Source: Harriotta raleighana
Lineage: Eukaryota
DNA: 64,000 nucleotides
NCBI GenBank assembly: GCA_050575255.1
Contig: JBNZDD010013665.1
Location: 1,496,135-1,560,134, forward strand
Reading direction: 5' to 3'
Below are positions 8,488 through 61,216 of this stretch, in pieces. The translations under genes and the position numbers were made by a program. The notes beneath the pieces were generated by a model, which worked only from the letters and a program-made list of their open reading frames with translations, ran no database searches and had not been told where the DNA came from. How positions within the stretch are numbered: position 1 is the stretch's first letter; every line of letters starts with the position of its first letter.

Positions 8488-11400
8488 ATGTCAAAGTCTT
8501 ATTGGCTTCAGAAGATGGGTGGACAGGACGAGGACACGGAGCACATTTGTAAACATAAAATTGCCATGTACTCGATGGACGATGGTGATTTCGAATTGCT
8601 AGACTCGGGCTTCCTGTCTATGGGAGAGGATTTCAACATCTCTCCACAGAATAGAGTTATCCACTGTTTGCAGCAACTGCAAGAGTTTCAGGGTAAGTCT
8701 CTGCTGAGTTCAACTTTTTGCTTGTAACTAACTAGGAGCAGGGTGTGGGGACTGGGTGACCAGGTTTGGTTTACAGTGAAATGCAAGGTTTATATAAAAT
8801 ATTTCTCATTGATTGTTTTTATTCAGAGAAGAAATGAAGTGAACGGTCGCTGCTTCCGTTTTGGATTCTGTCCAAAAGCCCCCAGATTTCCCAGCCACTT
8901 GCTAACCTGACACAACAGTCACCACACCACAGCTCTGACACTCAGGCTCTGACACTCTGACTGCGGGGTGGGTGCATTCCTCTTCTGTCTTATTAACACA
9001 AGGCAACCAATTCTGGTCACATCTTAAACCTCTGTAGAACAAACTACTGGGATCTTTCCTGACTCCAAAGATAAAAGTAAACACCTTATTAATTCATTAT
9101 GGGCTTTGACACGTCCAGAAGATGTGAGAAGCTTAATAACAAATACAAGGATTATTATTAAGTTCATCATTATCAGCAGCTGACACTAAAAGGTGTCAAC
9201 AGCATTAAAGCAATGTCATCAAGTGTCAGGAAGAGAGAGGTGTAAGTTTCAACTCCTGAGACCAGAGTACAGATAAAGTTAAACGAAGAATAGCAGAAGA
9301 AAGAGCTGCACAAAGCTCTCCCTCTCTCCCTACCTCCCTCCTTCGAGAAAACAACAACAATATAATTACACTTGCATAGCGCCTTTCACATTAGGAGGAT
9401 GTCCCAAGACTGGACAGTCATTGTTTCAGATCCGAGGGGTCAGAGACAGGGAGGGTGGACAGAAAGGGGGGAATTTTGGGTGGCCGGTGGGACCATTGAA
9501 CAGGGGTGTCTTGAGGGGAGACTTGAAGGAGTTCAGGAACTGAGGGATGGAGTTCCAGACATTGAGATCAGACTGGCTGAAAGCTCGCTCACCAATGGTG
9601 GTTCAGGGGATGTGGAGCAGGCAGGATCCTGCTGAGTGGAGGTGGCTGGCAGGATAGTAGGGGGTTAGGAGATCGCAGAGGTAGGGTGGGGCGAGGCTAT
9701 AGAGAGCTTTGAATGTGAGTACAAGGACCTTGAATTGGATCCTCTGGGTGATGGTGAGCCAATGGAGTTGGGCGAAGATGGGGGGGATGGTCACGAAGCT
9801 TGGAGCATGGGCCGCAGAGTTCTGAATTATCTGCAAACTATGGAGGGAGGAATTGGGAAGGCCGACAAGCAAGGCATTGGAGCCGGAATGTGATGAAGAC
9901 ATGAATGAGGGTTTCAGCAGCCTGGGGGTGAGGTAATGGCAGAGACAGGCAATATTGCAGAGGTGAGGGAAGGCAGAGTGAGTCATTGCTTGGATGCAGG
10001 GGAGGAAAGACATTTGAGAATCGAACAAGACACCTAGATTCCTGACTGGCTTGGTGAGCTGGAGGTTGATGCTGGTAGAGCCTGATGTGTGAAGGCTCTG
10101 GATCGAGCCAACCAGGAGGGCCTCGGTCTTGTTGACATTCAACTGTAGAAAGTTAGCTCACATCCATGACTTGATGTCTGACTGGCAGTCTGTCAGGACA
10201 GCAGTGGTCCTGGAGTCCAGGGTAGAGTTGGGTGTCATGCACATACATGTGGAAGTTAACCCCATGTCTGTGGATGATGTCACCAAGTGAGAGCAGGTAG
10301 ATGTTAAAATGTAGGGGGCCAAGGACAGTGTCCTGGGGGTTGCCACAGCTGACAGTGCGTGGGCTGGAAGAGAAGCCTTTGGTGGCAACAATGAGAAAGG
10401 TAACAGTTGAACCAAGCGAGGGCAGGTCCGCAGAGTTTGAGCTGGGAGGAGAGATGGTATAGGAGGATGGAGTGGTTGACAGTGTTGAAGGCAGCAGATA
10501 TGTTGAGGAGGACAAGGAGGCAGAGAGTGACCTGATCACAGATGTTTAGAATGTTATTAGAGACTTTTACCAGGGCTGTCTCTGTACTATGGGCAGCATA
10601 GAAGCCAGATTGCAGAGGATCGAGGAGGGAGTGGCGAGAGAGAAAGGAGCAAAGTTGGGAAGCAACGATTCATTCCAGGGCCTTGGAGAGGAATGGGAAG
10701 TTGGAAATGGGGGGTAGCTGCAGAGTAGGGGTGGGTCCAGTGAATGTTTTTTCAATATAGGAGGGATGGCAGCAGTTTTTAGAGGAGTGGGAACAGTCCA
10801 GTGGATAGGAAGAGGTTGATGACATCAGTTAGGAAGGGGGCTAGGAGATGGAGCTGGAAGATGAGGAGAGATAATAATAATAATAATAATAATAATCCTT
10901 GCATTTGATATAGCGCTTTTCACATCTTATCAACGTCCCAAAGCGCTTCACAGAATGTATTGTAAAGTGAATTGACTGTATATTTGTGGGAAGAACGCGG
11001 CAGCCAATTGCGCACAGCAGTGTCCCACAAACAGTCGTGGATTGAAATGACCAAATTTTATTATTGTGGTTTTTTGGAGGGATTATTATTAGGCAAGTGG
11101 AGTAAGGAAACTTGCCCAAGGTTTCGCCCTGATCTGCCTGGATTCGAACACAGGTCTCATGCTTGTAAGGCATGTAAGGCGAGTGCTCTAACCACTGAGC
11201 CACAGGAGCTCCAGGAGATGGGGATGTGGTCAAGGAAGCAGGTGGTGGGTTTCATTTTTTGGATGAGAGCAGAGAGGGTTGGGAGAGAGATAGAGTCAAA
11301 GGTGTGTAGTGGGGGTTGAGAGTGGGGTGGATCCTGGGGGAGAGGTTATGGGACGGTAGTGATGGACGGGGTAGAGGTGGCTGAACATATCCCCTCGATT

Positions 11401-14400
11401 TTTGATTCAAGGAAGTCCAGTATCTCCTTGCAGTTGAAGTTGAAGGATAGGATGGGTAAGATGTGGGAGGAAACGGTTTGTGGTGGAGAAGAGGAGCCTG
11501 GGGTTATCCTTGGCCTCTAAGATTAATTTGGAGTAATAGGAGGACTTGATGGGGGCAAGGGCGGAGCAATAGGCTTTAGTGTGATCCAGCCAAATCTGCC
11601 GATGGACGATTAGTTTGGATTTGGTCCAGCTGCGTTCGGCAGCTCACAATTGTGCCTTGAAGGTTCAGAGTCATTTAGATGACTCAAGGGCAGCAAAGAG
11701 GGAGGGGGGAGAATTTTTTTCTGTGGGCAATAGGTGATGGTAGAGGATTGAGTAGTGGGAAAGGGGAATAGAGTCGTTGAGGGAGATGGTGATATCTTGT
11801 CGGTTATGGTGATTTCAAAGCAGTGAGGGCAAGTCAAGCGGGTGGCCATGGATGTGGGTGGTGGAGTGGATGTGGAGGAATAGATTAACGGACGTGAGGA
11901 GGGAGGAGAAGTCACTGGAGCTAGAGCAGGAAGAGGTGAAGTGGAGGTTTAAGATAAGCAGTCTTTCAGAGCAAAGGAGGGGAAAACAGGAGGGGGGGGA
12001 GATGTCCGAGAGGAAGGTGGAGGAGGGCTTGGGGGGGATGATAGACAAGGAGAATTTTGAGGGGGAGACTGGAGGGTTGGTAGAGAGTAAGGTTTTCAAA
12101 GAAAGGGGAGGTTCCAGAGGAGTAAGGGGAAAGGCCAAGGATTGGGAGATTGGGAGTCAAACCACCATCACGACAGAGGGTTGGGCCGTGGGTTTTGGTG
12201 AAAGCCGTTAAGTGTGACCTCGATCAGAGGGAAAGTGTCACCTGGGGTAACCCAGGTTTCTGTCAAGGTGAGGATGTCGATGTTTTCATGGATGATGAGG
12301 TTGTGGATGGTGAGTGTCTTGTGAGACAGGGAGCGGACATTTTGCAGACCGATGTGGAGGAGACCGTTGGTGGTGGAGAATTGTGCAAGATGAGGAGGAG
12401 GGTTGACAGTGAGGGTGGGGATATGGATGAGGAAGGAGAGGTTGGCCACCAGGGAAAGGGACCGATGGATCTTGTGGCGAGAGTGGGGGATATGGCAATC
12501 AGGGTGGGTGCTGTCAGGCAGCCGGTGGATCATCCAAACACATCAGAATAAGAATAATAAATAATAATATTTGTTTTTGATATAGCCCTTCATCATGCCA
12601 TTGAGTCATTTCAAAGCAATTTGCAGAATATATTGTAAAGTGGATTGATTGTATTTTGTGGGCACAAACAGTCATGGATTGATTGATCCAATTTTTTTGG
12701 AAGAGGGAATATTCCTGGAAAGTAATAATCCCACTGTCTTCAATTGAATGGAGATAAATTCACAACAAATCTGTAGAAACATTACTTCCAGGGAGCGAGT
12801 AGTAAACCTATGGAACAGGCTCCTTAAGGAGGTGGTGGAAGCAGAAAGTGTTGATGTTTTCAAGAACAAATTAGATAGTCTTCTGTTAGGAAATAATCTT
12901 GGAAGACAATATATAGTTTGGGACAAGACATATCAAGTGATTGCCGGGATGAAGGAAGGCAAAATAGAGTGGATGGATCTTTTGCCAAGAAAATTCTTAT
13001 TTTCTTTTGAAACGTTAAGGTTTTTTTGTGTTTTATGTCTTTGTGGAGGTGACATTGGGCCATTACTACAGCAGCTGAAGCCGGAGCTGAAGTTGGGAGC
13101 CTCTCTCTGCACCAGTTCCGGGTGTGTAACAAACAAAGAGTGGTTGCAGGAGTTGGAAGATCTATGTACGCTTGGAGGCAAGATCCACATGGAGGTTTCA
13201 AAAGCTCTGATGCGTGTGAGCAATGAATATTTATCCAGCATTAGCCTGGAAAGTTTCCAGAACATTTATTCGGATTTACTGCAACAAGATCAAAATATAG
13301 GTACAATATTATTTTCACATCCTTGTGTGTGTGGGGCGGGGGGGGGGNGGGAGCGGACATTTTGCAGACCGATGTGGAGGAGACCGTTGGTGGTGGAGAA
13401 TTGTGCAAGATGAGGAGGAGGGTTGACAGTGAGGGTGGGGATATGGATGAGGAAGGAGAGGTTGGCCACCAGGGAAAGGGACCGATGGATCTTGTGGCGA
13501 GAGTGGGGGATATGGCAATCAGGGTGGGTGCTGTCAGGCAGCCGGTGGATCATCCAAACACATCAGAATAAGAATAATAAATAATAATATTTGTTTTTGA
13601 TATAGCCCTTCATCATGCCATTGAGTCATTTCAAAGCAATTTGCAGAATATATTGTAAAGTGGATTGATTGTATTTTGTGGGCACAAACAGTCATGGATT
13701 GATTGATCCAATTTTTTTGGAAGAGGGAATATTCCTGGAAAGTAATAATCCCACTGTCTTCAATTGAATGGAGATAAATTCACAACAAATCTGTAGAAAC
13801 ATTACTTCCAGGGAGCGAGTAGTAAACCTATGGAACAGGCTCCTTAAGGAGGTGGTGGAAGCAGAAAGTGTTGATGTTTTCAAGAACAAATTAGATAGTC
13901 TTCTGTTAGGAAATAATCTTGGAAGACAATATATAGTTTGGGACAAGACATATCAAGTGATTGCCGGGATGAAGGAAGGCAAAATAGAGTGGATGGATCT
14001 TTTGCCAAGAAAATTCTTATTTTCTTTTGAAACGTTAAGGTTTTTTTGTGTTTTATGTCTTTGTGGAGGTGACATTGGGCCATTACTACAGCAGCTGAAG
14101 CCGGAGCTGAAGTTGGGAGCCTCTCTCTGCACCAGTTCCGGGTGTGTAACAAACAAAGAGTGGTTGCAGGAGTTGGAAGATCTATGTACGCTTGGAGGCA
14201 AGATCCACATGGAGGTTTCAAAAGCTCTGATGCGTGTGAGCAATGAATATTTATCCAGCATTAGCCTGGAAAGTTTCCAGAACATTTATTCGGATTTACT
14301 GCAACAAGATCAAAATATAGGTACAATATTATTTTCACATCCTTGTGTGTGTGGGGCGGGGGGGGGGTGAGAGTGAGGTGCGGGTGTCGTTGCAGGAGAG

Positions 14401-17400
14401 AGGCAGGCATGGACTCCATTTGGGATCTTAGATTAGGAATCGCCAATGCCAGCAAATCCCTAAGAGTATGATTGCACTAATGTTTCCTTTCCATCAGGTA
14501 AACTGTTACAGACATCTGTCGAAAGAGCTGGAAGTTTGGATGTCAATATGTTGGACCTGCATCTCTTTGCTTCCTTGATCGCTTGTTGCCCCAAATTCCC
14601 TGAAGGCATGAGGGATCTCGTGAAGCGCTGGATCACAGAGAAGAAAGGAGACTTTTACTGGGAGCTGTTTCAGATGCTACAGGAGGAATGGTTCTGCTCG
14701 ATTCCGGAGGACGAAGTGCAGTGGTGTAGACGGGAGCTGCTGCATGCACTCCTTGTGTCTCTGAAGCGACCTCACCAGAGATACCTAACCTTTCATCATC
14801 TCCATGGACATGAAATCTTCCTGCCCGTAACTCTGGGTAACTCCACGCTCGTCTTCTCAATGCGCTTCAAGCTTTTCGCTGGCCAGTGATTTAACTTGTT
14901 TCATTCTCTTTAGGCTTCAGATGGGCCAAGACGGTTAATAATGCTAACATGCTACTCCAAGAGCATGCCTTTATCACGGTGAGTTAACTTTCTCGCTCCA
15001 GGTGCTTCTGGAGGTGAATCCTTGTGTTTGATGTGGATTTGTTTTCTAACTATCTCCCGGTTTATCTGGAGAATTGTTGACCGTGAGGAATATGAGGAAC
15101 AGATTTCTTGGTTTGACATCTCGTCTGAAAGACAACACGTCTGACAATGCAGCATTCCCTTTTAATCCTTAAAGTGTCTGCTTGGACATGAGGTTAAGTC
15201 CTCAGACACCTTGAACCCACAACCTTCTTTGAAAGAACCATCCAACTCGTCCCACTCCCCAGTTCTTACCCCGTAGTCCTGCAAATGTTTTCTTATTAGG
15301 TCCCTATCCAATTCTCTTTGGAAACCTACAATCGAATCTGCTTCTACAACCCTTTGAAGGCAGTGCATTCCAGACCATAGAATCATTCAAGTGTGTCTTT
15401 CTGTGAAGAATGTGACAGGGAGGGGAGAGGTTTGAGATCCTAGCTCCTGCTCACTGCCAGACACCTAGAAACTCACAATATTTATTTATCTTTGCTTCTT
15501 CTGCAGGAGCGATACCATATGAAGTCATTTTCAAAGATGGCAGCTCAGAAGACAGACATGGTGATGTGGTATGGTCCTGTGGCAGCCAACGCCTTCCTCA
15601 CACTCTGCTCGGCCCGAGGCTTTCCACACATCAGCCGGCAGCTGAGGAGCAGCTATCCTGACACCATAGCTCTACACCAAACTGCGAGTGAGTGTGTGCA
15701 TTTTGCAAGTGTGTTCAACAGCAGCATTGATACAGCACCCATCACACCAGGAGAGTCCCATTGCGCTCAAGAATAACGGACTACAGAGCCGAGGGGCAGG
15801 GGAGAGGTGACCATCGTCACGGTCAAATAGCATAGTCTTCAGGCGCGATCTGAAGATAAGGAAGGAAGGGGCAAGGACAGAGGAAGAGTGTGCGAAAGTG
15901 CGACCACCGTGAGAGCAAGCGAGGATGAGAAAACGTGAGAAGTTGGTGTCAGAAAATGTGTAAGTGTGAGACAAGTGTAAGTGATTCACTGTAAACTATT
16001 TTTCACCTTTGTGTAGTGACTGTGCTGGATCCTGACTCAGACAACCTTCCCCACATCCCACGACACGCAAAGCACCCTCTGAAATCAATTCATCGGAATC
16101 ACGAAGGTTTCAAAACCTGTTCCCTCGCTGAGCCCTGGCTGTTCCGATTGTCAGGGGCTCTATCCAACGAGTGGACAACAGTGGCCAGAGACCTTGATTT
16201 CAGTGATCAAGACATTGAGGAGACAGCAAGGAATTCCTGGTACAACCATCAGCAACGAATGTTCCATCTTCTGAAGAGAATGATTGAGGTTCGCTGTGTG
16301 ACATTCACAGAGTTATGCCTCCTCCTGCTTTCCAAAGGCCAAGAATACAAGTGCTATCCACAGCTAAACCTGGTGGTGGGGGCAGCATTGGCTGTTGGTA
16401 TGTAATTCTATACATATATATATATATACAGTATTTTAATAATCATCCTTGCATTTGATATAGTGCCTCTGCACGTCTCCCAAGCCCTCAAAGGACTTCA
16501 CAGAATATACTGTAAATATACTGTACTGTACAGCAACCAGTTGCACACAGAGACATCCTATAAACAGTTGAGGATTGAGTGGCCACATTTTTCCAAGGGA
16601 TTATTACCCCCTGGAATAGCAATCCTCTAATAATACTTTTATTTGATTAAAACGTCTCTAACATTTAAATATGTCTGATAGTGCATGCCGTGTAATCGTT
16701 GTCAAGTATAGATACCGTGCATTTTGTAGACAAAAGTTGCAGTCAATTTGCACACAACCAACATCCCACAGATGATCAATCAATTTTTGGGGTGATTGTT
16801 GGTCAGGACACTCGCTAGTGTCTTCTTTCAGATGTGGTTTCAAACATGGGCATAATCCGAGTGATTGATGAGAAGCAAGGCTGTAAGCGGCAGCGTACGT
16901 CCAAGCAGCAAGACGGGTGAGTGATCTGGAGCTACCGGCTCAGTTACTGTTTATACAAACAGCGATTTGTAAATGTAGCAAAGCCTAGAATCAACTGAAA
17001 CTCTGTAGGATCCTGATCAGGATAAATGGACTGTACCATTTTACAAGAAACATTTTCACACAAACAGTAGTGGAAACCTAGGACTCCCTCCCTCCCCTAA
17101 ATAGCTGTGGATGCTGGAACTATTACAATTTTCAAGACTGGAAAATGTAGGTAATTGTGAGCAGGCGTGATCTAATAGAAAGACAAACCAGGCTTGAGGG
17201 GCTGAATTGCTATTTCTGTTCCCATGTTCCTAAACAGAAACAAGATGTCCAGTTGGAATAGGACAGCCAACTTGTCTTAACAACATTGGGAAAGTCTTTT
17301 ATAAAAAAGTATTCAGTATTTTTTAACAAAAAATAAAAGTATCTCCCTCCAATGTAGTTTGTGCTGGAGGACAGTTCCATGTGCATTAATCGTGTCAAAT

Positions 17401-20400
17401 GGGCAATGGCTTTGGTTCGTCGCTATGGTTGGGTAAGTGTGTGGCATTGTGTTTTTCAATGTGTTCCTGCTCTGATGATAGGCATCAACCAGTAGTCACA
17501 CTGGTCCATGGCAACCTTGGTCTCATTTGTGATTATTGTAACAAATCATTGAATGTTAGCGAGATAAAGGTGGAGGAGATGGATCATTTCTTGGGCCAGA
17601 TGTCACTGGCGGGACCAGCCTTTAGCCTAGAAACAGATGCTCCTGGGACATACATGCTGCTGTTTCTTCCCAAATACCCCTCATCTTCAGGTGAGCATCA
17701 CAGACACTGACCCTCAAGTTAAACCATTTAACGTAACATTTGTCTCCGTTTAATAAAAGTATCTGATAAAAGATGATGGAAGGAACTGGTTTGCTCTTAA
17801 TGCCAGCGTCTCATTTTGAAAGTGTGGTAGTAATTAAATGGTTTTATATATGTTTAACAAAGAGAATGTAATGTCAGATGTCACACTATTCCTCTGGTGG
17901 AGTCCTGTAGCTCAGTGGTTAGAGCACTCACCTGACAAGTGTGAGATCTGTGTTCTGAATCCAGGCAGGTCAAGGCGAAACATTGGGCAAGTTTCCTTAC
18001 TCCACACGCCTAATAATAATTACTCAAAAAAGCCACATTAATAAAATTGGTCATTTCAATCCACGACTGTATGTGGGACCCTGATGTGCCCAATCGGCTG
18101 CCGCATTTCGCTCACAATTATAGTCAATTCACTTTACAATATATTCTGTGAAGCGCTTTCAGACATTGATAAGATGTGAAAAAAGTGCCTAATCAAATTC
18201 AAGGATTATTATTATTATTGTGTATACTGCTAGAGTCTGCTACAGGGTGTCTGAGTGGCCAGAATGACTCCAATGTAGCGTTGGACATTCAGCCCCGATC
18301 CTGGGCTAACTTTGCTCCCGGATTTGTACATTTCTGAGTGTTCTCTCGTACATGTTGTAAACAAATGTTTCCAGCATCATACAAGGATGGATGAGTTTAT
18401 AAATCTCTCATCTATAATACTGATAATAATCCTTGTATTGTATTTGATATAGCTGCTTTATCAGGTGGTTGACTTGTCTCAAAGCACTTCATAATTCACT
18501 ATTGTATTTTGCGGGCGAAACGCAGCAGCCAGTTGCGCCCAGCAGTGTCCCACATACAGCCATGGATTGGGTGACCACATCTGTATTGCTCTGAAAGTTT
18601 ATTACCCTCAGAAAGCAGTAAACAGAGGTGCATGATGTACAAAAACTTAAAATTGAGTGTTTTCCCCACCAGGGAATTGAACCCTAATCTTCTCACTTGT
18701 GAGGGGATTTCACTGCATTAACATTAGGGGAAGGCACACTGTAAGTTGGTCTTTTGACAAAGAGTGGGAAGGAATAGCCCACTGCAGCTAGAGAGACTTT
18801 GATCCAGGACTCTTTCCGTTGGGTGTTAATTTAAGGGCTTTACTCTTACAGGAAGCTGCATCACCCCTTCTACCATCAAAGACAATCTGGAGCTTTTCTT
18901 CCGGGAGGAATATCTGAATCTAAAAAATTCTTTATTGGAGAAGCTGCAGAAAGTGTTCGATAATGAAGAGTGGGAGGTACGGATTTCATTTTGATTAGTG
19001 CCCCCGTTCCAGCACTTGGTGCAGCTAAAATCAGTTACTGGACATGCATACCACATCTATTTGTGTAGGCTGGGCAAGAGTTTGAGGGTAAAAACTACCA
19101 ATCCAGTGTCTCCTGTTTTGATTGTGAAATTGAAATCAAATGGATTAGGATCTTTGGGACAGGAGGAGGCTATTCAGGTAACCAAGCCTTATTGAATCAC
19201 GTCAGAACTTTCAATACTATTTCTTTGGCTTCATCACCACTCTCAATATTCACCTGGCAAAGGACAACTCACTCCTGATGAAACTTATTGAATCACGTCA
19301 GAACTTTCAATACTATTTCTTTGGCTTCATCACCACTCTCAATATTCACCTGGCAAAGGACAACTCACTCCTGATGAAAGCCTCGCTGGTGACTGAGGTC
19401 TGCTCTGTGCCAGACTTTTTTTCCCTAATACTTTCAATATCCCATCAATTGTTGGAAACGACGATGTGAATCCAGAGTGTTAATGTCGTCCACAGCGTGT
19501 GTGCAGTTGCCTGGAGCTGAATGATACTAGTGCTGTTGTTGACCTAACTCTGTCCAAAGGAGGGCAAGCGTTGGAGTTGTTGTGGGATTTTGTGAAGGAG
19601 ACTGGAGCCCTGATCAGGGACTGGCCTCAACTGCATTGCAATGGACTTCACAGCAGCACAGGTATTTCACTCTCAACCGTAACTCACCTGAGAATTCATT
19701 CACCTGATATTTTCCCCACTTTTTGACTTCTGATTGACCGAGATGTTATTCCTCCCTCCCCAGTTCAAATCGCACACACTGTAGATGGGAATGTCGAGTT
19801 GTTCCTGCCGTTCGCTGACACTAAGTCTCATGTCTGGGTTCTTCTGGACTCCTGTTCCTTGGTCATGTTGGTCAAGCGTTTGACCAATTGGAATATATGT
19901 GAGGCTTACTGTCTGCTCTACAAGCCCGTGGGCCGGGATTACATTCAAAACAAAATGGTTATGTTTTTTTATCTGATCCGAAAAAAAGATGGCGTGATTG
20001 AGGTACCTCTATTCATCTTCTGCTACCTTTAGACTAGATTCTGTGTATAAACTAAAACCCTGGTTAACTGGACTGATGAGGAGGGGATGGTGGGAGGAGA
20101 TCTGGCCCCACGAGTCAGAATTTCTGGTATCAGCAATGTAATTGTTTGAATCCTATGAGGAGATAGATAATAATAATCCTTGCATTTGATATAGTTTTAG
20201 CACCTTGTTGAGAACATCTTGAAGCACTTCACAGAATATATGGAGTTCTGTAGCTCAGTATTTAAAGCATTCACCTTACAAGCGAGAGACCTGGATTTAA
20301 TTCCTGGCATGGCAAAACCTTAGGCAAGTTTCCTTACTCCACACGCCTAATAATAATCCCTTTTTAAAAAGATTGATAATTTCAATCCACAACTGTTTGT

Positions 20401-23400
20401 GTTGACAACAAAAGTCAATTCACTTTCCAGTATATTCTCTGAAGTGCATTGAGATATCTGGAGGACCTGAAAAGCGCTATCGCAAATGCCAGGACTATTA
20501 TTATTAATATTATTATATTGTAAAGTGGATTGACTGTATTTCAAGGGAGAAATCTAGCAGGCAACAACAAAATTAAACTTGTATAAACCAATTGCACACA
20601 ATATTGTCCCACAAACATTCATGGATAGAGTGACCAAATTATTTTTGGTGGGAGCGGGATTATTTATTACCTCTAGAAAGCAATCTGCCAATCGACTAAC
20701 TGGGTTCCAATGTATTGCTAGGTAAACAAATGTGTGTGTAGTATGGAAACTTGCCAAAAGTTTTGCCCTACTTGGGAATCAAACCTGGGTTCTCCCACTT
20801 GTTTTTTTTAAAGCCCCACCATCTTCCCTCCATCCAAGAATAAGATCTCTTCTGCTTGTGGGATTCAAACTGAATTAAAGTTGATTTCCCTGGCCACTGA
20901 AGGCCAGCGAGGGTGTGTGTTAGGACAGTGAGCCAGTGGGAGACCAGACATGTGCCTGTGGATGGATGTTTCTGTTTCTGGCCAGTCCCCCTGGGCAAGT
21001 TTATTACTCAAATTTGATAATTACAGCAATTTATTACACATTGAAGCACTGTGTATTGTATTCTTTACGGCATGGATTACTTGGATTCTGTTCCATCCAT
21101 CCCCAGAAATTGAACAAACAGCACAAAGGTCATGAGCAAGTGTTCAAAGAAAATGTCTGTGTGGCCAGAAACATGTTCTACAAACTTTGTGTTGATTCTC
21201 AGATAAAAACGAACTTCATCTCTATTATACCACAGGTAAATTATTGATGTTATGTACTGAATGGATGACACTGAGTCTGTACATTGCTGTTACATATTGA
21301 ATTCTCTCGATCTTTACTCCCTCACTCCCTCACCCCCAACCCCGAAAAAGGACAAAGGCTTTCTCACAGTCCAGGGTTCTCAGTGAAGATTGCGGAGGAA
21401 TAAACCTATCAACAGCAAATTGGATAGCCCCAATGGAGTCCCTTCAGGCAGGGATTTGAGTGAGACAAACTCACCAAACCACTATTAAGCGCTCTGGAGA
21501 GACTCTATCCTCCTTGGAGGATACTATTTAAGTGCAAGTTGTTGTTGTTTAATAAATTCTGTTACTAGGAACTGAAGTTCAATACGGAGATGATGTTTAC
21601 ACTGTACCTGAAGCAGTCACAGTTCACTGCCTGGCCCATTCAGCTCCAACTGGTTCAAAACAATGATGGTCAGTCTGTGTTCAACAAGGTCCTCACTGAG
21701 ACGATGCTTCAGCATGAAAAGAAAGGTATTCCTGTCTATCATCCTCTATTCAGTGCTCCCAACAATCCCATCCCTACTTTAGAACTATATTTGTATCTAT
21801 TAGCTGTCACTTATGGTTGGATTTCATTACGGAGGGGAGAAATATAACAGGAGTAGGCCACTCAGCCCCTCAGGCCTGTTCCGCCATTATATATGACATC
21901 ATGGCTAATCTGTGCCTCAACTCCAAAATTGAGAAATGAACAGGTACCATTCCAGGCCAATTGGCAGCTGCACAGAAGGATTTCTTCAGGTCAGTGTCTT
22001 TCAGAGACTGATTCAAAAGAGCAACAGACTAATTTCCCAAGCCCTTTTTATTTCCTGTAGATTATATCTTGGTCGAAGTCCACGGGGAGCAGCACTGTGT
22101 CCTGACAATCCATCGTGAAATCACTTATGAGCAATTTCGCACTGGACTGGATTTGACATTCCCAGAGAAAAACCTTGCTGTGTATTATAAAGAAAAAGGT
22201 GATCTCAGAACCTCCCACCTCTCTCACCCCCCGATCTCAAAGCCTCCCACACCATCCACCCCCTGATCTTGCAGCATCCCACCTCTCGATCTTGCAGCCT
22301 CCCACCCCTACCACCCCCAATTGTTGAGTGGCTCTCAGTGTACCAGTCACTGCATTTTTTGACCTACATGTTTCGTGCTGCTCATTTACAAATAAACATT
22401 CGTCATATTTTGGCAGGTCCTCCTGTGTGTATCAACCAGCAAAACAGTATTGACTACATCCTCGGGGAGATACCTCAGGGTAATATTGTTCTCAAGGCTG
22501 AAGGTGATGTGATTTCAGTATTGATCAACTCTTTTCTGTATAATGCGTTGATTACAAAGTTCTGAGACTCTCTTGTTTGTGACAAGATAATTGGGGTCTC
22601 GTTGTAGGCAACAGAATGCGTAGTCCAGTTCCTGAGCCATATGGGTCCACATTATTCCCGGGCACTACTGATGACCACAGTCAGCTTGGCTCATTGGCAG
22701 GATCTCAAAGGGCAAACCAGTCACTGACGGCAGGTAATCACACCTCTCAGCTCCTTCAGCCACATTGCCCCCAACCTCTGGAACTCCATCCCGGAGTCCC
22801 TCCACCTTGCACACTCCCTGGCCTTCTTCAAGTCTCGCCTCAAGACTCTCCTCTTTGATGAACCCATCGGCAACTCCTTATTCCCCACCTTCCCTCCCCT
22901 GCCCTGTCCTCAGCTCGTGTCTGAAGCAGTACCGAACATGAAAGGCGCTATACAAGTGTAATTTTGTTGTTGGTGGTAGTTGTTAACCCTGAAAGCCAAA
23001 TCCCTAATGGGTTCAAAGATATGATAACGTACTATATCAAATGCAATGATTATTATATTCTCATTTACCTACGAATCAGTCATTATGCTTGGCAATACAT
23101 ACTGTGAAGCATTTTGAGATATTTTCACACAAGTGCTGTGAAAATTTGGAGTCTTGTAGCTCAGTGGTTAGAGCACTCGCCTTGCAAGTGAAAGACGGTT
23201 CGATTCCAGGCAGAGTGAATCCTTGGCAAATTTCCTTTCTCGACACGCCTGATAATAATCCCTCGATAAAACACGATAAATAGTGGGTTATTTCAATCCA
23301 CGACTGTTTTTGGGACACTGATGTGTGCAATTAGCTGCCGTGTTTCTCCCACAAATATAGTCAATTCACTTTACAGCATATTCTGTGAAGCATTTTTAGA

Positions 23401-23900
23401 GATGTCTAGGAAGACGTGAAAAGTGCTATAGCAAATGCAAGGATTATTAAGAATTCAACTTTCCCACAACGAGTGAAGCCAGCCATAGCTATGGGCACAT
23501 TTTATAGTCGTTTGCTTCCACAGATGTGAGACAGCTGATTGCAAAGCCAGGCAGACACTTCCTGCAGAGAAACAAGGCAACCCTGATCTCCAGAATCACT
23601 GAGATCAGAAGTTTGATCGAAGAGCTGCAAGACCAGGAAATCCTCAATCCGGTAGAGTACGAGATGCTGATCAGTGTCAGCCCCCTGACACACCAAGTCC
23701 GAGAGACCCTGAACTGTGTGATTAAAAAAGGGAATCAGGCAATGGATATTTTTCACAGCCTGCTTGAGAAGCACCAGCCATACCTGCTTAAAGAAATAGA
23801 GAGCGCAGAGCTATCACATTCGAATTATGATCCAGGACAGAGTTCGAACCCACAGCTTTTACAATGTGGTGGACACAAAAGCAATGATATTATGTTGTAA
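8488..23900 (+). CDS. Uncharacterised multi-death-fold FIIND protein (PYD-like, DD, FIIND with CARD-like insert, PB1-like, CARD; CARD8/NLRP1-related), about 1061 aa. Exons: 8488-8692, 14069-14320 (duplicate 13049-13300), 14498-14826, 15507-15687, 16017-16397, 16832-16916, 17482-17690, 18852-18976, 19496-19661, 19764-20002, 21107-21235, 21569-21725, 22061-22198, 22417-22503, 22608-22733, 23524-23900
   Basis: All 15 introns are GT-AG and the phases chain without a stop (3186 nt total). The C-terminal CARD, FIIND motifs and death domain are recognisable by eye. AATAAA at 24055. Exon 1 and the exon 2 acceptor (GAG) are the least certain parts. Confidence 0.8.
9345..12545 (-). mobile_element. Degenerate long L2-clade LINE (APE endonuclease plus RT remnants)
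   Basis: Endonuclease N-terminus LQNVRSL...IDILTLTETW (12168-12533); RT motifs GNPQDTVLGPLHFNIY and HMYVHDTQLY (10153-10539); LNVNKTEALL, FKVLVLTFKAL; (TTG)n tail near 9350. Many frameshifts. Confidence 0.88.
10872..11212 (-). mobile_element. tRNA-derived SINE inserted into the L2 element
   Basis: Reverse-complement head GGAGCTCCTGTGGCTCAGTGGTTAGAGCACTCGCC, B box GTTCGAATCC, long (TTA)n tail at 10872-10896. Confidence 0.85.
12329..14368. repeat. Apparently identical 1020-bp tandem duplication (probable assembly artefact)
   Basis: 12329-13347 and 13349-14368 look identical, with a single N at the junction (13348) after a G run. Confidence 0.85.
15225..15385 (-). mobile_element. CR1 LINE 3' fragment
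   Basis: Minus-strand LWSGMHCLQRVVEADSIVGFQRELD resembles the CR1 ORF2 C-terminus; similar fragments at 12790-12890 and 34000-34140. Confidence 0.65.
16017..16397 (+). CDS. Death-domain-encoding exon of the novel gene
   Basis: WLFRLSGALSNEWTTVARDLDFSDQDIEETARNSWYNHQQRMFHLLKRMIEVRCVTFTELCLLL fits the death domain pattern (W..LAR.L.FS..DI...Q...LL..W....T...L...L); phase 1-1 exon. Confidence 0.8.
17482..21725 (+). CDS. FIIND (ZU5-UPA) region of the novel gene, interrupted by a CARD-like cassette
   Basis: MSLAGPAFSLETDAPGTYMLLFLPKY resembles NLRP1 [62 protein letters not shown] resembles [45 protein letters not shown] resembles FHLYLI, and ISIIPQ|ELKF resembles LEILPK|ELEL. Confidence 0.75.
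17899..18220 (+). mobile_element. tRNA-derived SINE
   Basis: GGAGTCCTGTAGCTCAGTGGTTAGAGCACTC head, family body, (TTA)n tail. Confidence 0.85.
19188..19379. repeat. 96-bp tandem duplication (2 copies)
   Basis: CTTATTGAATCACGTCAGAAC...CACTCCTGATGAAA occurs at 19188 and 19284. Confidence 0.85.
20242..20505 (+). mobile_element. tRNA-derived SINE (with flanking reverse-orientation SINE pieces to about 20800)
   Basis: GGAGTTCTGTAGCTCAGT head, family body and TTA tail. Confidence 0.75.
22061..22503 (+). CDS. PB1-like (beta-grasp) domain exons of the novel gene
   Basis: DYILVEVHGEQHCVLTIHREITYEQFRTGLDLTFPEKNLAVYYKEKGPPVCINQQNSIDYILGEIPQGNIVLKAE has PB1-like beta-beta-alpha-beta-beta-alpha-beta patterning. 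Confidence 0.55.
23148..23449 (+). mobile_element. tRNA-derived SINE
   Basis: GGAGTCTTGTAGCTCAGTGGTTAGAGCACTCGCC, GGTTCGATTCC B box, family tail. Confidence 0.85.
23524..23900 (+). CDS. Terminal exon encoding an ASC/NLRP1/CARD8-type CARD
   Basis: HFLQRNKATLISRITEIRSLIEELQDQEILNPVEYEMLISVSPLTHQVRETLNCVIKKGNQAMDIFHSLLEKHQPYLLKEIE matches the CARD consensus (HF..R...LI.R......L..L....L..E.Y...KG..A...F...L....PYL..EL). Confidence 0.9.
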
Positions 23901-27400: not shown

Positions 27401-29193
27401 TTACTCACTCCCCAACCTTCACGCACTCCACTCGCTCGACGCTTACACAGCCGTCAAGTGTCAACGTTGGCAGGTGGGGCTGGTAGCATTGCATTAACTC
27501 CTCTTCCAACTCATCTGGGTTCATGTTTCTAAACAGTTTGAGCATTCGATATTGTAGATTGTATTTGCTGTCTATCTGATTGTCTGGCAAAGACCACCAA
27601 GCACCCACTCCCATCTGACCTCCACATCAGACAATAACTCCCGATGTGAAAGGCTTTACATCAATGCAATTTATTGTTGTTGTTGTAACGTGGGGTTCTG
27701 CTTGACCACGCCATTCCATTCATAGACTCCTCCGCTTCCCAATCAGCAGTCACACACAAAACACAGTTAGAATGGGGGTTGCCTAACCACAAATGGTCGT
27801 TGAAGACGGATCTCCTGACTACACTTAGGAGTAAATCAGAGAATGACTGAGAAAAACAGTATTACAGGCTGTGGGAAAGAGCAGGGTTTAACGTAGTGAG
27901 CACTACCACACTACCACACACAGCGGGGGGAAAGAGCAGGGAACAGAATTAGAGTGGAGAGCTTTAGTGAGGAGTGAGTACCAGCACAGACAACAAAGAA
28001 TGAAATGGCCTCCGCCTTCATTACAACATTTTTCTTGCTGTCAATTTGCTGCATGTGTTGAGTGGCATCTGCTGTGGCTTCGTACTCCAGTAGCACTCAG
28101 CTACCGCTCAATCTTGGCTGTATTGCCTCCTCCCTCCAATCCCTCATGCTCCAATTCCCGCATTCACGATACTCTTAAGCATCTCCCGCCCGCCCCCACC
28201 TCCCCCTATCCAGTGTTTGTGTTGCCATGTAATAGTCTCACATTGATTTTACACTATTTATTCTTCCACACATCTCTTGGGAACCACGAAAATAGCAACA
28301 AGAGGGATTGGAGAGGGACTGAAGACTGTGCACAGACAGAGAGTTACCCGGAGGACGAATAACCCACTGTGAGCTGAACCCACAGGCCGTGCCGTGTGTC
28401 TGACGCAGCAGTGACCAGATCGATGGACAGAGGAAGCAAAGTACCTGCTGCACCCTCACTGGACCAGAGACACGCACTGCGCATCACCTGCCGGGCAAAG
28501 CAGCATTCTGTTGTGTGCACACGCTTCACAAGCAGCACAGCTCTACAGCAAGTTGCTCAGAGCTCCAATGGGGGAGTGAGCACCAGCACAGACACCCCAC
28601 CCCACCCACACAACATTCAATGCCCATATTTCGTTCCTTACAAACCAGCCATGTACAAGATCCCATAAATCGGCTCCGACTTTGATTGCGGTATTGCCTG
28701 GATCTTGATATCACGGTGAAGCTGCCTGTGTTAGCAGACATCAGGCCGGAGACCGCTTCCCAAACAGTCCCCAGAATAAATACATACACTTGGGAAACAT
28801 GCCCGAAACACCATACAGAAAGAATTATGTACACAGCTCTGCGTTCGCTCGTGATATCTTTGGCAAGACGAAGCCCAGTCATCGTGATCACTGCTTCTGG
28901 CTCTCAATGAGTGCAGTACCGAGGAGTCCGGACCGGGACAGCCTGTCCTGGGGTAGCTCTGGGCTCGCCCGCACTGGCAGACAGCAATCTCTGCTCCAGG
29001 CTGTCTCTCCTCCCTGCTCCTGTGATGATCCTCAGCCACACCGAGGAGATCAGCTCCAATATTCCCACTACAGGTCGTACCCGGCGCCTCAATCTCCCAT
29101 CTCCTCGGCCATTCGGGTGGGGAGGGGGGAAAGGATAAGAGGATGAGAGGAGCTGGAGCCACTACTCGGGAAAGACATTAATTCACAATAGGG

Positions 29194-32100
29194 TTAGAGA
29201 GCACATCCTACCAGGTTAGCTTCTGTTCCAGTTCTTTGCGATGCCGGGCTGCACTTGTGTCCAGGCTGTTGCTCAGTGTTCATCTCCAGGTAGCCTCGTC
29301 TGTCAATTAAACTGGAGAAACAGGACATGGCGAGTGAGTCACAGAATGACACAGCAGTACACTGCTCAATGTTACCAATTGTCATATATTCCGTGAATTG
29401 CTTTGAAGGGTCTTAAAGTTGTGATAAGGCACTGTATCAAATGCTAGGATTATTATTACTATATTGAACACAGACCCACAGAATGGGATTCTCTCGCACA
29501 GGTACTAACGTCAGTTGGCTGTGTGTTACCTGGGTGGCATGGGGCCACACAGCACGGCACAGCAGTTGGTGAGAGCACTGTTGTAACTGTATGGGTTACC
29601 AGTCTCCTCACAGCCTCGCTTTGTAGTCCAAGAGCCTTTAATCTGTCATAAAATAATAAAAGGGCATTAGACAAAAAGCTACAAACAAATAAAAATAATA
29701 GTACAGTAAAACCTTGTTTATCCGGTACCAAACCAACCGGCATACTCAACCAACTGGTGGTAGCTCCCAATTGTATCTCCCAATATGTACAAATTGTATT
29801 GGGAGATCCGGGACCCTCGCAGTTTGCTCATTTTGCACATGCGCGGTGCATCCGCACTTTACTAAAGTTACCCAAATCTAGAATGCTTTTATACTGATCA
29901 TTTTAGCGAGTGTACTGGAATGCTTTATTGGTAAGTATCCAAACAATATTCTTTAATTATTTAGTCTATTATTAATATGGTATGTTTTAAAACTAAGCTA
30001 TATTTTTTGGGTAGGATTTTCAGCAAAATAACGAATATCCAGCGTAATTGACTAACCGGCACCAGGCAGGTCACGAGGGTGCCAGATAACAAAGGCTTTA
30101 CTGTACTATAATTTGGTCACTCTACCCATGACAATTCGTGGGACGCTGCTGTGTACAATTGGCTGTCCCGAGTTTTGCCCACAAAAATTCAGTCAATTTA
30201 CTTTACAGTATATTCTGCAAAACACTTACAGGCATCTCAACGACATGATAACGCGCTTTATCAAATGAAATGATTATTATTGTAAACAAAATAGCAATAC
30301 AAAGGATTGTTTGTGTTGTGTACTGTCATCAGGTTGATACAGAATCTGTCGCTGCTCCCTTGAGCAGAGACAGAGTGATCAAACAGGGCAGCATGGCAGG
30401 TGAGTGCATAAATGGCACTGAGATACAGAGAGAATCCTAGTTCTACTATGGTGTTAAACATGTCTTTGCATTCAGCTGTACTTACATCTTCATTGGTCGT
30501 CAGATTGGAAGCCACAAGGTACGTGTGGAAGCCAGAGAGACCGAGAATGGACCAGACAGAGAAAAAGCAGATCAGCAACTCGAGGGCAGTGAGAGTGTCA
30601 AGGAAAGTGGCATATAATGTAATATAACTGCTCCACACATTGACACGTATGCATGCATATATACACGCGCACATACACACACAGATACACGCTGACCCAC
30701 ATACCCACATGCACTCACTGACAACCAAGTGTACACTCTCGCTGAGGAGTGTGGAAGGATATCTGGCTGGAGACTCCTGGAGGACATTTAACAACCCAAT
30801 TCTTTGAGATCCTGGAAGAAGAGTTAAAAAAATTGTGAAAGGTTAATAGCTGCTTCCATATTGTTTAACCACCATCCCCGCTACCCCCAATCCTTACCTC
30901 GCCTGACACATTCATCCACACTTATAACAAATTCCATTCATTATTGACCTGCTCACCTCTTCCTTTCTAGAGAATATAACCCTAATTAACTTTGTTCCAC
31001 ATAAACTGGTGAATTGTTGCTGGACACCCTCCGGGAATCTACCTAAAATCCAATATGTACACAACAGTTCACGAGGTGTGAGTGACAACTTCTGTATCTT
31101 ATGTCCTAGACCAGCTTCTTATAAAGTCCAGTATCCCATTCGCCTTAATAACTAACAAGTGAGAGTAAAGCACTTACTCAGTGTGAGGTGTGTTATCACA
31201 CACGCAAAGATGAAAGCAGTGAGGAATGAGAGCGAGAGTAGAAACATGTAGAAGAATCTGTAATTCCGTTTCCCCACACAGTTTCCAACCCAGGGGCAGT
31301 GGTGGTCAAATCGCTCTGAGGGGAAAATAACATTCAGATCAGACCAATAAAACTCACCAATAAAACATAGGTCAATTCAGTTTACAGTATATTCTGGAAG
31401 CACTTTGAGACCAGGTCTCGAAGACTTGATGAGGTGCTCTATCAAATGCAAGGATTATTATTCTGATTAAAACTCAAACCATGGGCCACATGACAGACAG
31501 AGCACATCCCTGCCTGGGCCAAGGCTGCTACTCACCCACACAGTTGTCACACAAGCTGCAGTGTGAAGTGCGTGGTGGCCGAAACATTTTGCAACTGAAA
31601 CAGTACTTGAGTTTGACGGGCTGCCCGTTGATCAGCACCTCTCTGGTGCGTGGTGGCCGGTAACTAGATCCCCCGGAGTTATCTGAAACAGAGGTTCAGT
31701 CAGTCGCAGGACATCGACAGTGAAGCTCACAGGCCCAGAGCAGGCCAGTTTTAAGTGAAATATTAAAAACCCCATCAGATTAAAAATATTTCTACCAACT
31801 TGTGGGTAAAATGATGCCCCTATGCCAGTTACCCCACAATTCTATATGGCTCAAAATGTGGATCATGGATCAGCAAACTTGTATTGAATACGCAATCCTT
31901 GTATTTAACTTGTATTTGGTACACTGCTGACACACACAGGGATACAATAAAGCACCTTGTTCTGCGCAAAGCTGCTCCTGGCTCTGGCACATATCCCACG
32001 GCTACTGAATCTCAGTGTGACGAAAGCTAAAACCGCTCTGCGCTGTCCGCTGCCCGGCCAGTTACCTATCTGTCTCTCCAGGTGAGCTGCCTCCTCGGGT

Positions 32101-33039
32101 GTGGCGCGGGGCAGGATCCCGGGATCACTGAGGGTGGTGTGAAGTAAGGCGCTGATCACAAACAGGAAGAGGCAGCCAGCGATGATCGGGATGGCGAGAG
32201 TCAGGTGCTGTGTCAGGTAAGGACAGCTGCAAACGGAAATAATCTGGTTACAGTATCTGAAAACACTCGACTCGAGACCCCCCCAACTGGGTCACATACA
32301 GATCTGAATAAAGCTCCTCGTCTCAATTCCTGGCAGGGAGAAACCATGGGTAAGTTTCCTTACTCCTTACGTCTGATAATAATCCAGAGAGAGAGAGAGA
32401 AAAAAAACAATAACAAATTGGTCAATTCAATCCACGACTGTTTGTGGGGACAACAACAACGACAACTTGGACCTATCCAGCGGCCTCCACACCGGATGGA
32501 GTCTGAGTGCTGTGCGCAATTGTCTGCTGCGTTTCGCCAACAAATAAACAGTCAATTCATTTTACGGTATATCCTGTGAAGCGCTTTGAGACGTCTAGAA
32601 GACGTGAAAGGTTTATTGTTGTTGTTATTATTAAGGGCCGAGTGGCCTCCCTCTCTCTGCACAGTAACATTTCTCTGAATGATCAGCAGGTCTCCCAGCC
32701 TGGATCAGTCGATCTCTCATCAGGAGGGTGTTCAAGGCCTGATCACAGGCTGCCTGAGGGACATTACTACACACACAGTCACTACACTGGACAGGGGCCG
32801 ACTTTCACTCACTCAAAGGCAAAGAAGAGGCCGCTGGTGGCGAGGATGAGGCCCAGGGTCAGGTAGAAGGCGCCGCTCAGGCGGCCGCTCATCAGACGCC
32901 CATTACAGCAGAAGCGGTTCCTGCCCGGAAACGTCTCCCACTTCCTGCGGAGAGTCCGCTTCCCGGGAACAGCGCCCGGAACCGAGGCCGAGGCTGAGGC
33001 CGGGCCTAGCGCGATCTGCCGGTACTCGCACTCCTTCAT
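29194..33039 (-). CDS. ZDHHC18: Palmitoyltransferase ZDHHC18; exons 33039-32813, 32226-32066, 31682-31536, 31315-31178, 30811-30763, 30588-30486, 29642-29530, 29311-29194
   Basis: MKECEYRQI start, [59 protein letters not shown] (DHHC), NLTTNEDIK, SLIDRRG. Synteny with PIGV and GPN2 supports ZDHHC18 over ZDHHC14. Confidence 0.93.
29704..30103. mobile_element. Tigger/pogo-like MITE
   Basis: TA|CAGTAAAACCTTGTTTATCCGGTACC ... GGGTGCCAGATAACAAAGGCTTTACTG|TA imperfect terminal inverted repeats with TA flanks. Confidence 0.8.
30589..30762 (-). other. U12-type AT-AC intron in ZDHHC18
   Basis: Minus strand: 5' site ATATCCTT, branch site TTCCTTGAC, 3' end ...ACTCTCAC; removal joins ESPAS to ALELLICFF in frame. 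Confidence 0.92.
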
Positions 33040-33199
33040 GGCGCCAGTCTGAGCATGGCTCCCGGTCTCCTTGCCCCCAGTCTCTCTCTCTCTCTCTCCC
33101 CCCGAGGGAAGTCACTGGCTCTTGTCTCGGAGCAGACCCCAAATCCCGGGCGCGGCTCCGGCTCCAGGTCTCACCGCGAACAGCAGAAGCCCGGCCCCG

Positions 33200-46996: not shown

Positions 46997-61216
<14,220 letters not shown>

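Follow-up and report, generated by a model that had tools for sequence, protein, structure and literature searches.

A predicted CARD-derived fold within the ZU5 subdomain of a chondrichthyan FIIND-CARD protein

A 64,000-nucleotide stretch of the genome of the chimaera Harriotta raleighana (GCA_050575255.1, contig JBNZDD010013665.1, positions 1,496,135 to 1,560,134 of the forward strand; hereafter the window, from whose first letter coordinates are counted unless another contig is named) carries a gene for a FIIND-CARD protein whose ZU5 subdomain is interrupted by a 97-residue insert. The insert is encoded by two exons set in an ancestral intron and is conserved between chimaera and sharks, and the phenylalanine of the FIIND self-cleavage motif has been lost throughout the insert-bearing family. 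We give an even chance to the overall interpretation that the insert is a predicted CARD-derived fold and likely permanent, that the FIIND is likely uncut, and that the protein is a scaffold or brake in inflammatory cell-death signalling, with three death folds and a PB1-like domain, and not a sensor of the NLRP1/CARD8 type acting through a released fragment.

The insert exons (18852-18976, 125 nt, and 19496-19661, 166 nt) together comprise 291 nt or 97 codons, with AG/GT ends and phases 1-0-1, the outer introns being phase 1 and the inner intron phase 0. An initial annotation of the window had given these coordinates and the phase of the outer introns, and both were confirmed by the canonical splice ends and by the elephant-shark ortholog P0055, in which an insert of 97 residues recurs with the same sequence at both joints and 79% identity. 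The location of the insert peptide was likewise correct, the quoted peptide was too short; the complete insert starts with GSCITPSTIKDN and ends with PQLHCNGLHSST. The gene model contains 15 exons from 14498 to 23900 with a reading frame open over 933 residues, and two further 5' exons (approximately 8488-8692 and 14069-14320) were located by tblastn with P0055. The stretch 17358-17432 was discarded as a possible exon; the ZU5 exon proper begins at 17482. From the N-terminus, the product consists of a degron motif, a helical region, a death domain, the N-half of ZU5, the insert, the C-half of ZU5 with UPA, a PB1-like domain and a CARD. Pfam recognised the death domain, FIIND (positions 89-129) and the terminal CARD (E-values in Table 1).

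The ordinary FIIND ZU5 exons of this genome have a phase-1 donor just past the LP-H-F strand in six of six cases, and the ZU5 N-half exon of this gene ends (17690) exactly at that position. Because the ordinary paralogs share this donor, the insert module was placed in an ancestral intron. With phase-1 introns on both sides and a position within an ancestral phase-1 intron, it has the structure of a class 1-1 shuffled module, a few residues upstream of the catalytic His (codon 19775-19777); a symmetric phase 1-1 module next to that His had been proposed from the first reading of the window. The spacing from the LP-His to the catalytic His is 17-19 in five ordinary exon pairs of this genome and 18 in human NLRP1; the spacing from LP-x to the catalytic His in this gene is 107 with the insert and 10 if it is skipped, which is 7-9 residues short. 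In the ordinary paralogs, the next exon adds several residues ahead of the His strand; here, the final approximately eight residues of the second insert exon stand in for the usual ZU5 connector. We argue that the insert tail replaced the normal connector and that inclusion of the insert is therefore obligatory. The frame is kept if both insert exons are skipped, and skipping one alone leads to a premature stop. The earlier statement that skipping would yield an uninterrupted FIIND holds as to the frame and fails as to a normal FIIND, given the spacing.

All 19 annotated relatives that span the region carry the insert (18 of 18 aligned proteins plus P0058). They represent 10 genes from 8 chondrichthyan species (Callorhinchus, Heterodontus, two Scyliorhinus, Stegostoma, Cetorhinus, Mustelus and Carcharodon); P0011 (192 residues), which does not cover the insert, was left out of the counts. 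Across relatives the insert is 91-101 residues long, and its identity to this gene is 79% in the elephant shark, 40-44% in the shark orthologs, 32% in the elephant-shark paralog and 13-16% in the shark paralogs. Compared with horn shark, identity was 44% for the insert, 46% for the preceding ZU5 exon, 56% for the following exon and 34% for the rest of UPA, and conservation of the insert relative to its flanking exons, as judged from these alignments, exceeds chance. Insert skipping was found in none of the 19 relatives' models, all of them predicted RefSeq models, although the same annotations include a horn-shark isoform (X3) without the death-domain exon and some models without the linker exon; toggling by alternative splicing, as initially suggested, finds no support there. 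Three S. torazame isoforms gain 28 residues immediately after the insert. The relatives are annotated as 'uncharacterized' or under a generic CARD or ASC-like name.

A phmmer search over 1.84 billion representatives gave 41 matches, of which the five at E<=1e-30 were all chondrichthyan and most others aligned only via the CARD. A profile search for the insert family, in which the best 8000 candidates were scored, does not by itself establish absence beyond chondrichthyans. In a midpoint-rooted phylogeny of the ZU5-C/UPA part (19 rows, without the insert), a branch supported at 100/99 set the 11 rows with the insert apart from the others, and the second clade, that of the paralogs, united a chimaera and sharks with support of 89/87. 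Tree position and protein identity both mark the source of this gene as a holocephalan related to the elephant shark. From this topology, the insertion probably precedes both the duplication of the family and the chimaera-shark split, which dates to about 400 million years ago.

No second copy of the insert was found in this genome that could represent a donor gene; the donor search returned two weak matches (E 0.3 and 4.7) in short frames with stops nearby. The CARD at locus L035, considered as donor for its likeness by eye, was rejected at only 7 bits. In the split CARDs of this genome, phase-0 introns lie a few codons off the internal intron of the insert. That internal intron contains a perfect tandem repeat of 2 x 96 bp (19188-19379).

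Homology of the ZU5 and UPA parts to known FIINDs was found by Pfam (FIIND E 9e-4 for P0055, under the cut-off), by phmmer of P0002 against the ordinary FIIND P0039 (E 3e-4) and by profile A2, which itself contained two ordinary FIINDs, against rat and human NLRP1 FIIND (E 8e-10 and 2e-9). The catalytic His (NLRP1 H1186, CARD8 H270) aligns at the codon given above. The S-F/S cleavage motif is absent from the family: the P1 residue is Cys in six, His in four and Leu in one of the 11 genes, and Phe in none. This gene has the catalytic His, an S-C-S motif and Lys at the His252 position; in four sharks P1 has changed from Phe to His, and three of these also have Gln at the catalytic His. The equivalent of CARD8 His252, its position set by an 18-residue spacing, is lost in 11/11 genes (K/T/S), the Glu279 equivalent is F/V/L in all 11, and the equivalent of NLRP1 L1193 is Glu throughout. 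The ordinary paralogs differ, with Phe kept in 5/6 and both the catalytic His and the LP/FP-His in 6/6.

Cleavage of CARD8 depends on Phe296, Ser297, His252 and His270, with Glu279 needed in part, and the F296H mutant has a severe cleavage defect (PMC3210808). For rat NLRP1, the catalytic residue is His942, and Phe968 serves as the anchor of the site (10.1101/2020.08.13.250241). Judged by these residues, efficient cleavage of the product of this gene appears rather doubtful, and so does the initial idea that the insert stays on an N-terminal fragment after cleavage, with S-C-S at the site here and Phe missing family-wide. The family is homologous to the FIINDs of CARD8 and NLRP1, resembles a ZU5-UPA-death-fold scaffold and departs from CARD8 and NLRP1 at the S-F/S motif.

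The fold of the insert is predicted and not solved. Aligned by hhalign to the CARDs of this genome, the insert reached probabilities of 47-71% (E 4e-5 to 2e-4) over helices 3-6 only. With the gene's own CARD removed, CARDs scored 26.8, death domains 13.5, PYD 11.7 and the ZU5 N-half 10.2, and the CARD score was reached by 0 of 100 column shuffles (maximum 15.9). A hidden Markov model (HMM) of the insert ranked 21 CARDs higher than 36 domains of other kinds (p 2e-5), with CARDs making up 10-11 of the top 12. The AlphaFold2 model of the insert, based on a 10-sequence alignment, was all-helical, with a predicted local distance difference test score (pLDDT) of 76.8, and in the full-length ortholog model the insert forms six helices between beta strands (mean pLDDT of the full-length AlphaFold model 43). 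When the insert model was compared with 48,161 chains using VIA-align, the top 30 rows were all death folds: 18 CARDs, 9 PYDs, 2 DEDs and a single death-like domain from bacteria. For two PYD rows the assignment relied on the titles and residue ranges of the entries. Leading the ranking were the CARD8 CARD (Z 7.9, root mean square deviation (rmsd) 3.4, 83 aligned), NOD1, with a Z of 7.8, and ARC, with a Z of 7.6 and an rmsd of 2.4. Alignment A4, which included ordinary FIINDs, was not used for folding, MAFFT having put their ZU5 strand on the insert. Foldseek rows of the full-length model (CARDs and death domains, none at E<=0.001) came without model ranges and were not used for the insert.

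Several results weigh against the interpretation of a permanent CARD-derived insert in an uncut FIIND. Pfam CARD (PF00619) matched none of 10 insert sequences at E<=10, nor either exon alone; the insert profile found no CARD among PDB sequences; Foldseek with the insert model returned nothing at E<=0.001; and the Atlas feature search gave FIIND/ZU5 clusters (0.89, to be read as no more than a lead), no cluster of CARDs, and nothing usable once the FIIND/ZU5 families were skipped. The isolated insert model has helices 1 and 2 fused, and in the full-length model the FIIND part is unreliable (pLDDT <50), so that any closure of ZU5 around the insert is putative. The best Z is below 8, which according to the tool may reflect only a common helical arrangement, and CARD (Z 7.9) and PYD (Z 7.4) are tied within 1 Z. 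As to cleavage, the nucleophile Ser is kept in 11/11 genes and the catalytic His in 8/11 including this one (Gln in 3/11), and the loss of the Glu279 equivalent is uninformative, since it is also missing in 5/6 ordinary paralogs. The relatives are predicted RefSeq models, the newer elephant-shark model of the locus has only 192 residues, and the degron motif described below is absent from the second paralog clade. Since no Z reaches 8 and PYD scores level with CARD, the structural signal is read as an enrichment of the death-fold class and not from any single score. Taking profiles and models together, the insert is very probably a death fold and probably CARD-derived; the divergent CARD originally proposed is upheld to that extent by the profiles and the 30 top structural rows, a Pfam CARD call being missing.

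At the N-terminus, what is probably the first coding exon encodes a beta-TrCP-type degron motif, DSGFLS (8602-8619). Within the ortholog clade, conservation of DSG(F/Y)xS extends to the elephant shark and to sharks of three species, and DSGxxS was found in this gene and in 7 of 11 clade-A protein models, the other four starting downstream of the motif. Motifs of the DSGxxS type fit the beta-TrCP phosphodegron consensus (PMC13097077).

In the mechanism that we propose, a CARD module would first have entered the phase-1 intron of ZU5, at a time preceding both the duplication of the family and the divergence of chimaeras from sharks. The tail of the insert may then have taken over the 7-9-residue ZU5 connector, which would have made inclusion obligatory. 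Without cleavage, ZU5 would remain on UPA and block UPA-driven filament growth, and the C-terminal CARD would stay unreleased. The death domain, the nested CARD-like fold, the PB1-like domain and the terminal CARD could provide docking surfaces by which putative partners (such as ASC, caspase-1 or the ordinary FIIND-CARD paralogs) are held or dampened, and the N-terminal DSGxxS of the ortholog clade may let a kinase signal remove the whole protein. In NLRP1, an attached ZU5 prevents UPA polymerisation, and the killing caused by the free C-terminal fragment is suppressed by the uncleavable S1213A mutant; Leu1193 is part of the DPP9 interface, and LL1193EE is defective in DPP9 binding (10.1101/2020.08.14.246132). 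The analogy with uncleavable NLRP1 is only partial, because that suppression acts through DPP9, which the insert family may not bind.

Other explanations were weighed against the same evidence. The protein could still be a cleaving sensor, in which a C/S cut persists, the nested CARD on the N-terminal fragment covers the C-terminal CARD, and destruction through the degron frees UPA-PB1-CARD. The retained Ser (11/11) and catalytic His (8/11), the DSGxxS at the N-terminus of this gene and seven of the 11 clade-A models, and the intact terminal CARD would all suit such a sensor, but Phe is absent from all 11 genes, the four sharks with F>H include three with His>Gln, the His252 equivalent is lost, and F296H cripples CARD8 (PMC3210808); we consider this explanation unlikely. 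Of similarly low probability in our view is a CARD-derived insert that is now purely structural, stabilising an enlarged ZU5 or sterically excluding DPP9 without homotypic binding. The insert is too diverged for Pfam and shares only 13-16% identity with the shark paralog clade, yet its C-terminal R-x-W-P and nearby leucines are invariant, and the Glu at the L1193 position in 11/11 genes recalls the DPP9-binding defect of NLRP1 LL1193EE (10.1101/2020.08.14.246132). Against a purely structural role, conservation within the ortholog clade is about equal to that of ZU5 (40-44% vs 46-53%), and the whole six-helix pattern is retained.

An alternatively spliced cassette that switches the FIIND between an active and an interrupted state would agree with the symmetric phase 1-1 exons, their in-frame skip and the somewhat weaker pyrimidine tracts of the insert acceptors (0.61 and 0.56 vs 0.56-0.89 gene-wide). 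It is nevertheless highly improbable: none of the 19 annotated relatives skips the insert while other exons are skipped, and a skipped form would have a connector 7-9 residues short and a cleavage motif still degenerate. Equally improbable is an insert that is not a death fold, be it some other bundle of helices or a decayed copy, arisen by internal duplication, of the ZU5 strand to which it bears a superficial likeness. HMMER and MAFFT can align the ZU5 strand of ordinary FIINDs (AGPLxDI...HLPHF) onto the insert (GAIVDL...HLLW), the Atlas features point to FIIND/ZU5, and Z is under 8. However, the true match of that strand is the upstream exon, which the ZU5 N-half profile matches at E 4e-4 (insert 0.33), the insert models are all-helical, and 30/30 top structural rows are death folds. 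A permanent, CARD-derived insert in a likely uncut FIIND remains the reading that we prefer.

Placed beside known systems, this gene shares with CARD8 and NLRP1 a ZU5-UPA core followed by a C-terminal CARD, and the catalytic His and Ser positions align; the CARD8 CARD is the best structural match of both the insert and the full-length model. Unlike CARD8 and NLRP1, it has a 97-residue predicted death fold within ZU5, a PB1-like domain between UPA and CARD, an upstream death domain and helical region, and S-C-S or, within the family, S-H-S in place of S-F-S. Pfam found no NACHT or LRR. PIDD1, UNC5 and ankyrin combine a ZU5-UPA core with a death domain after UPA, and UNC5 and the ankyrins use the core as an uncut scaffold; the death folds of this gene stand before, inside and after the core.

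The ordinary chimaera FIIND-CARD paralogs (the cluster on contig C13602; elephant-shark P0039) have the same phase-1 intron after the LP-x-F strand, and among the CARDs of the genome theirs rank with the highest-scoring against the insert profile, if weakly (12-15 bits). They differ in having no insert and in keeping Phe (5/6) and both histidines (6/6), and a long branch separates the insert family from them. The cluster itself (C13602:99614-156607; loci L002, L004-L008, L010-L013, L015, L018, L021 and L022) is a tandem array in which at least five ordinary FIIND-CARD genes keep their F-S motifs intact; an internal stop interrupts one of the CARD matches. Loci L003, L009 and L061 (C13729:12.208-12.215 Mb) hold an ordinary FIIND whose motif reads S-L-S and which is followed by a death-domain match instead of a CARD match.

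The features of the gene are listed in Table 1. The PB1-like domain between UPA and CARD (22061-22503) is 51-68% identical among orthologs. The helical region (14069-15687, approximately 280 residues) is conserved, has no convincing Pfam match and a low-confidence model, and may hide more death folds; assignment of 14498-15687 as a PYD found no support (profile probability 0.6%). The segments 12329-13347 and 13349-14367 are an exact tandem copy (1019/1019 bases) separated by a single N, which duplicates a coding exon and is probably an assembly overlap artefact. A decayed reverse-transcriptase-like repeat (9606-10545, minus strand; Pfam RVT_1 E 0.021) lies in the first intron. The neighbouring genes at 2388-2879, 28734-33111, 37717-38916 and 48834-50603 comprise a GPN-type GTPase, a DHHC palmitoyltransferase and PIG-V (by Pfam) and an ARID1A-like gene (by eye); we take the neighbourhood to be the GPN2-ZDHHC18-PIGV-ARID1A block, with the FIIND gene where human has SFN.

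Table 1. Exons and encoded features of the insert-bearing FIIND-CARD gene (window coordinates)
Feature	Coordinates	Strand	Remarks
Probable first coding exon	8488..8692	+	Start ATG uncertain; tblastn E 7e-6 to P0055; DSGFLS 8602-8619
Probable second coding exon, helical	14069..14320	+	Copy at 13049-13300, probable assembly artefact
Conserved helical region, three exons	14498..15687	+	14498-14836, 14914-14978, 15507-15687; no Pfam match
Death-domain exon, phase 1-1	16017..16397	+	Pfam Death E 0.0029; hhalign 94% to death domains of this genome; skipped in horn-shark isoform X3
Linker exon, death domain to ZU5	16832..16916	+	
ZU5 N-half exon, phase 2-1	17482..17690	+	Ends LAGPAF...FLPKYPSSS; matches ordinary ZU5 N-halves, hhalign E 4e-4
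Insert exon 1, phase 1-0	18852..18976	+	Predicted helices 1-2 and start of helix 3; 18/42 residues identical to horn shark
Insert exon 2, phase 0-1	19496..19661	+	Predicted helices 3-6, CARD-like VDL..SKG; 25/55 identical to horn shark
ZU5 C-half and UPA start	19764..20002	+	His codon 19775-19777; degenerate cleavage motif D-S-C-S 19847-19858; Pfam FIIND E 0.026
UPA exon	21107..21235	+	
UPA exon	21569..21725	+	
PB1-like domain exon 1, phase 1-1	22061..22198	+	Pfam PB1 weak: 3/12 aligned proteins, best E 0.0067
PB1-like domain exon 2, phase 1-1	22417..22503	+	
Linker exon, phase 1-1	22608..22733	+	Missing in some relatives' models
C-terminal CARD exon, including stop codon	23524..23900	+	Pfam CARD E 4.8e-11

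In the literature on FIIND in sharks and chimaeras or on exon shuffling, no publication on the insert family was found, subscription journals lying mostly outside the coverage of the search. FIIND proteins are understood as self-cleaving switches, and the insert family indicates that ZU5 tolerates a whole, predicted death fold beside its catalytic strand. It is a clear case of a domain inserted within a domain, with the recipient intron still visible in the paralogs. The F>H change that was used in the laboratory against CARD8 cleavage is fixed in nature in four sharks, and the family offers a natural test of how an uncut FIIND-CARD protein behaves. We tentatively propose, as a possibility well short of an even chance, that cartilaginous fishes have kept a pseudo-protease FIIND family since before the chimaera-shark split, in which the nested CARD and a beta-TrCP degron would replace self-cleavage as the switch, giving a degradable, uncut protein of several death folds as a brake on their FIIND-CARD inflammasomes. 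The gene, so far uncharacterised, is a candidate for a role in regulating innate immunity in these fishes.

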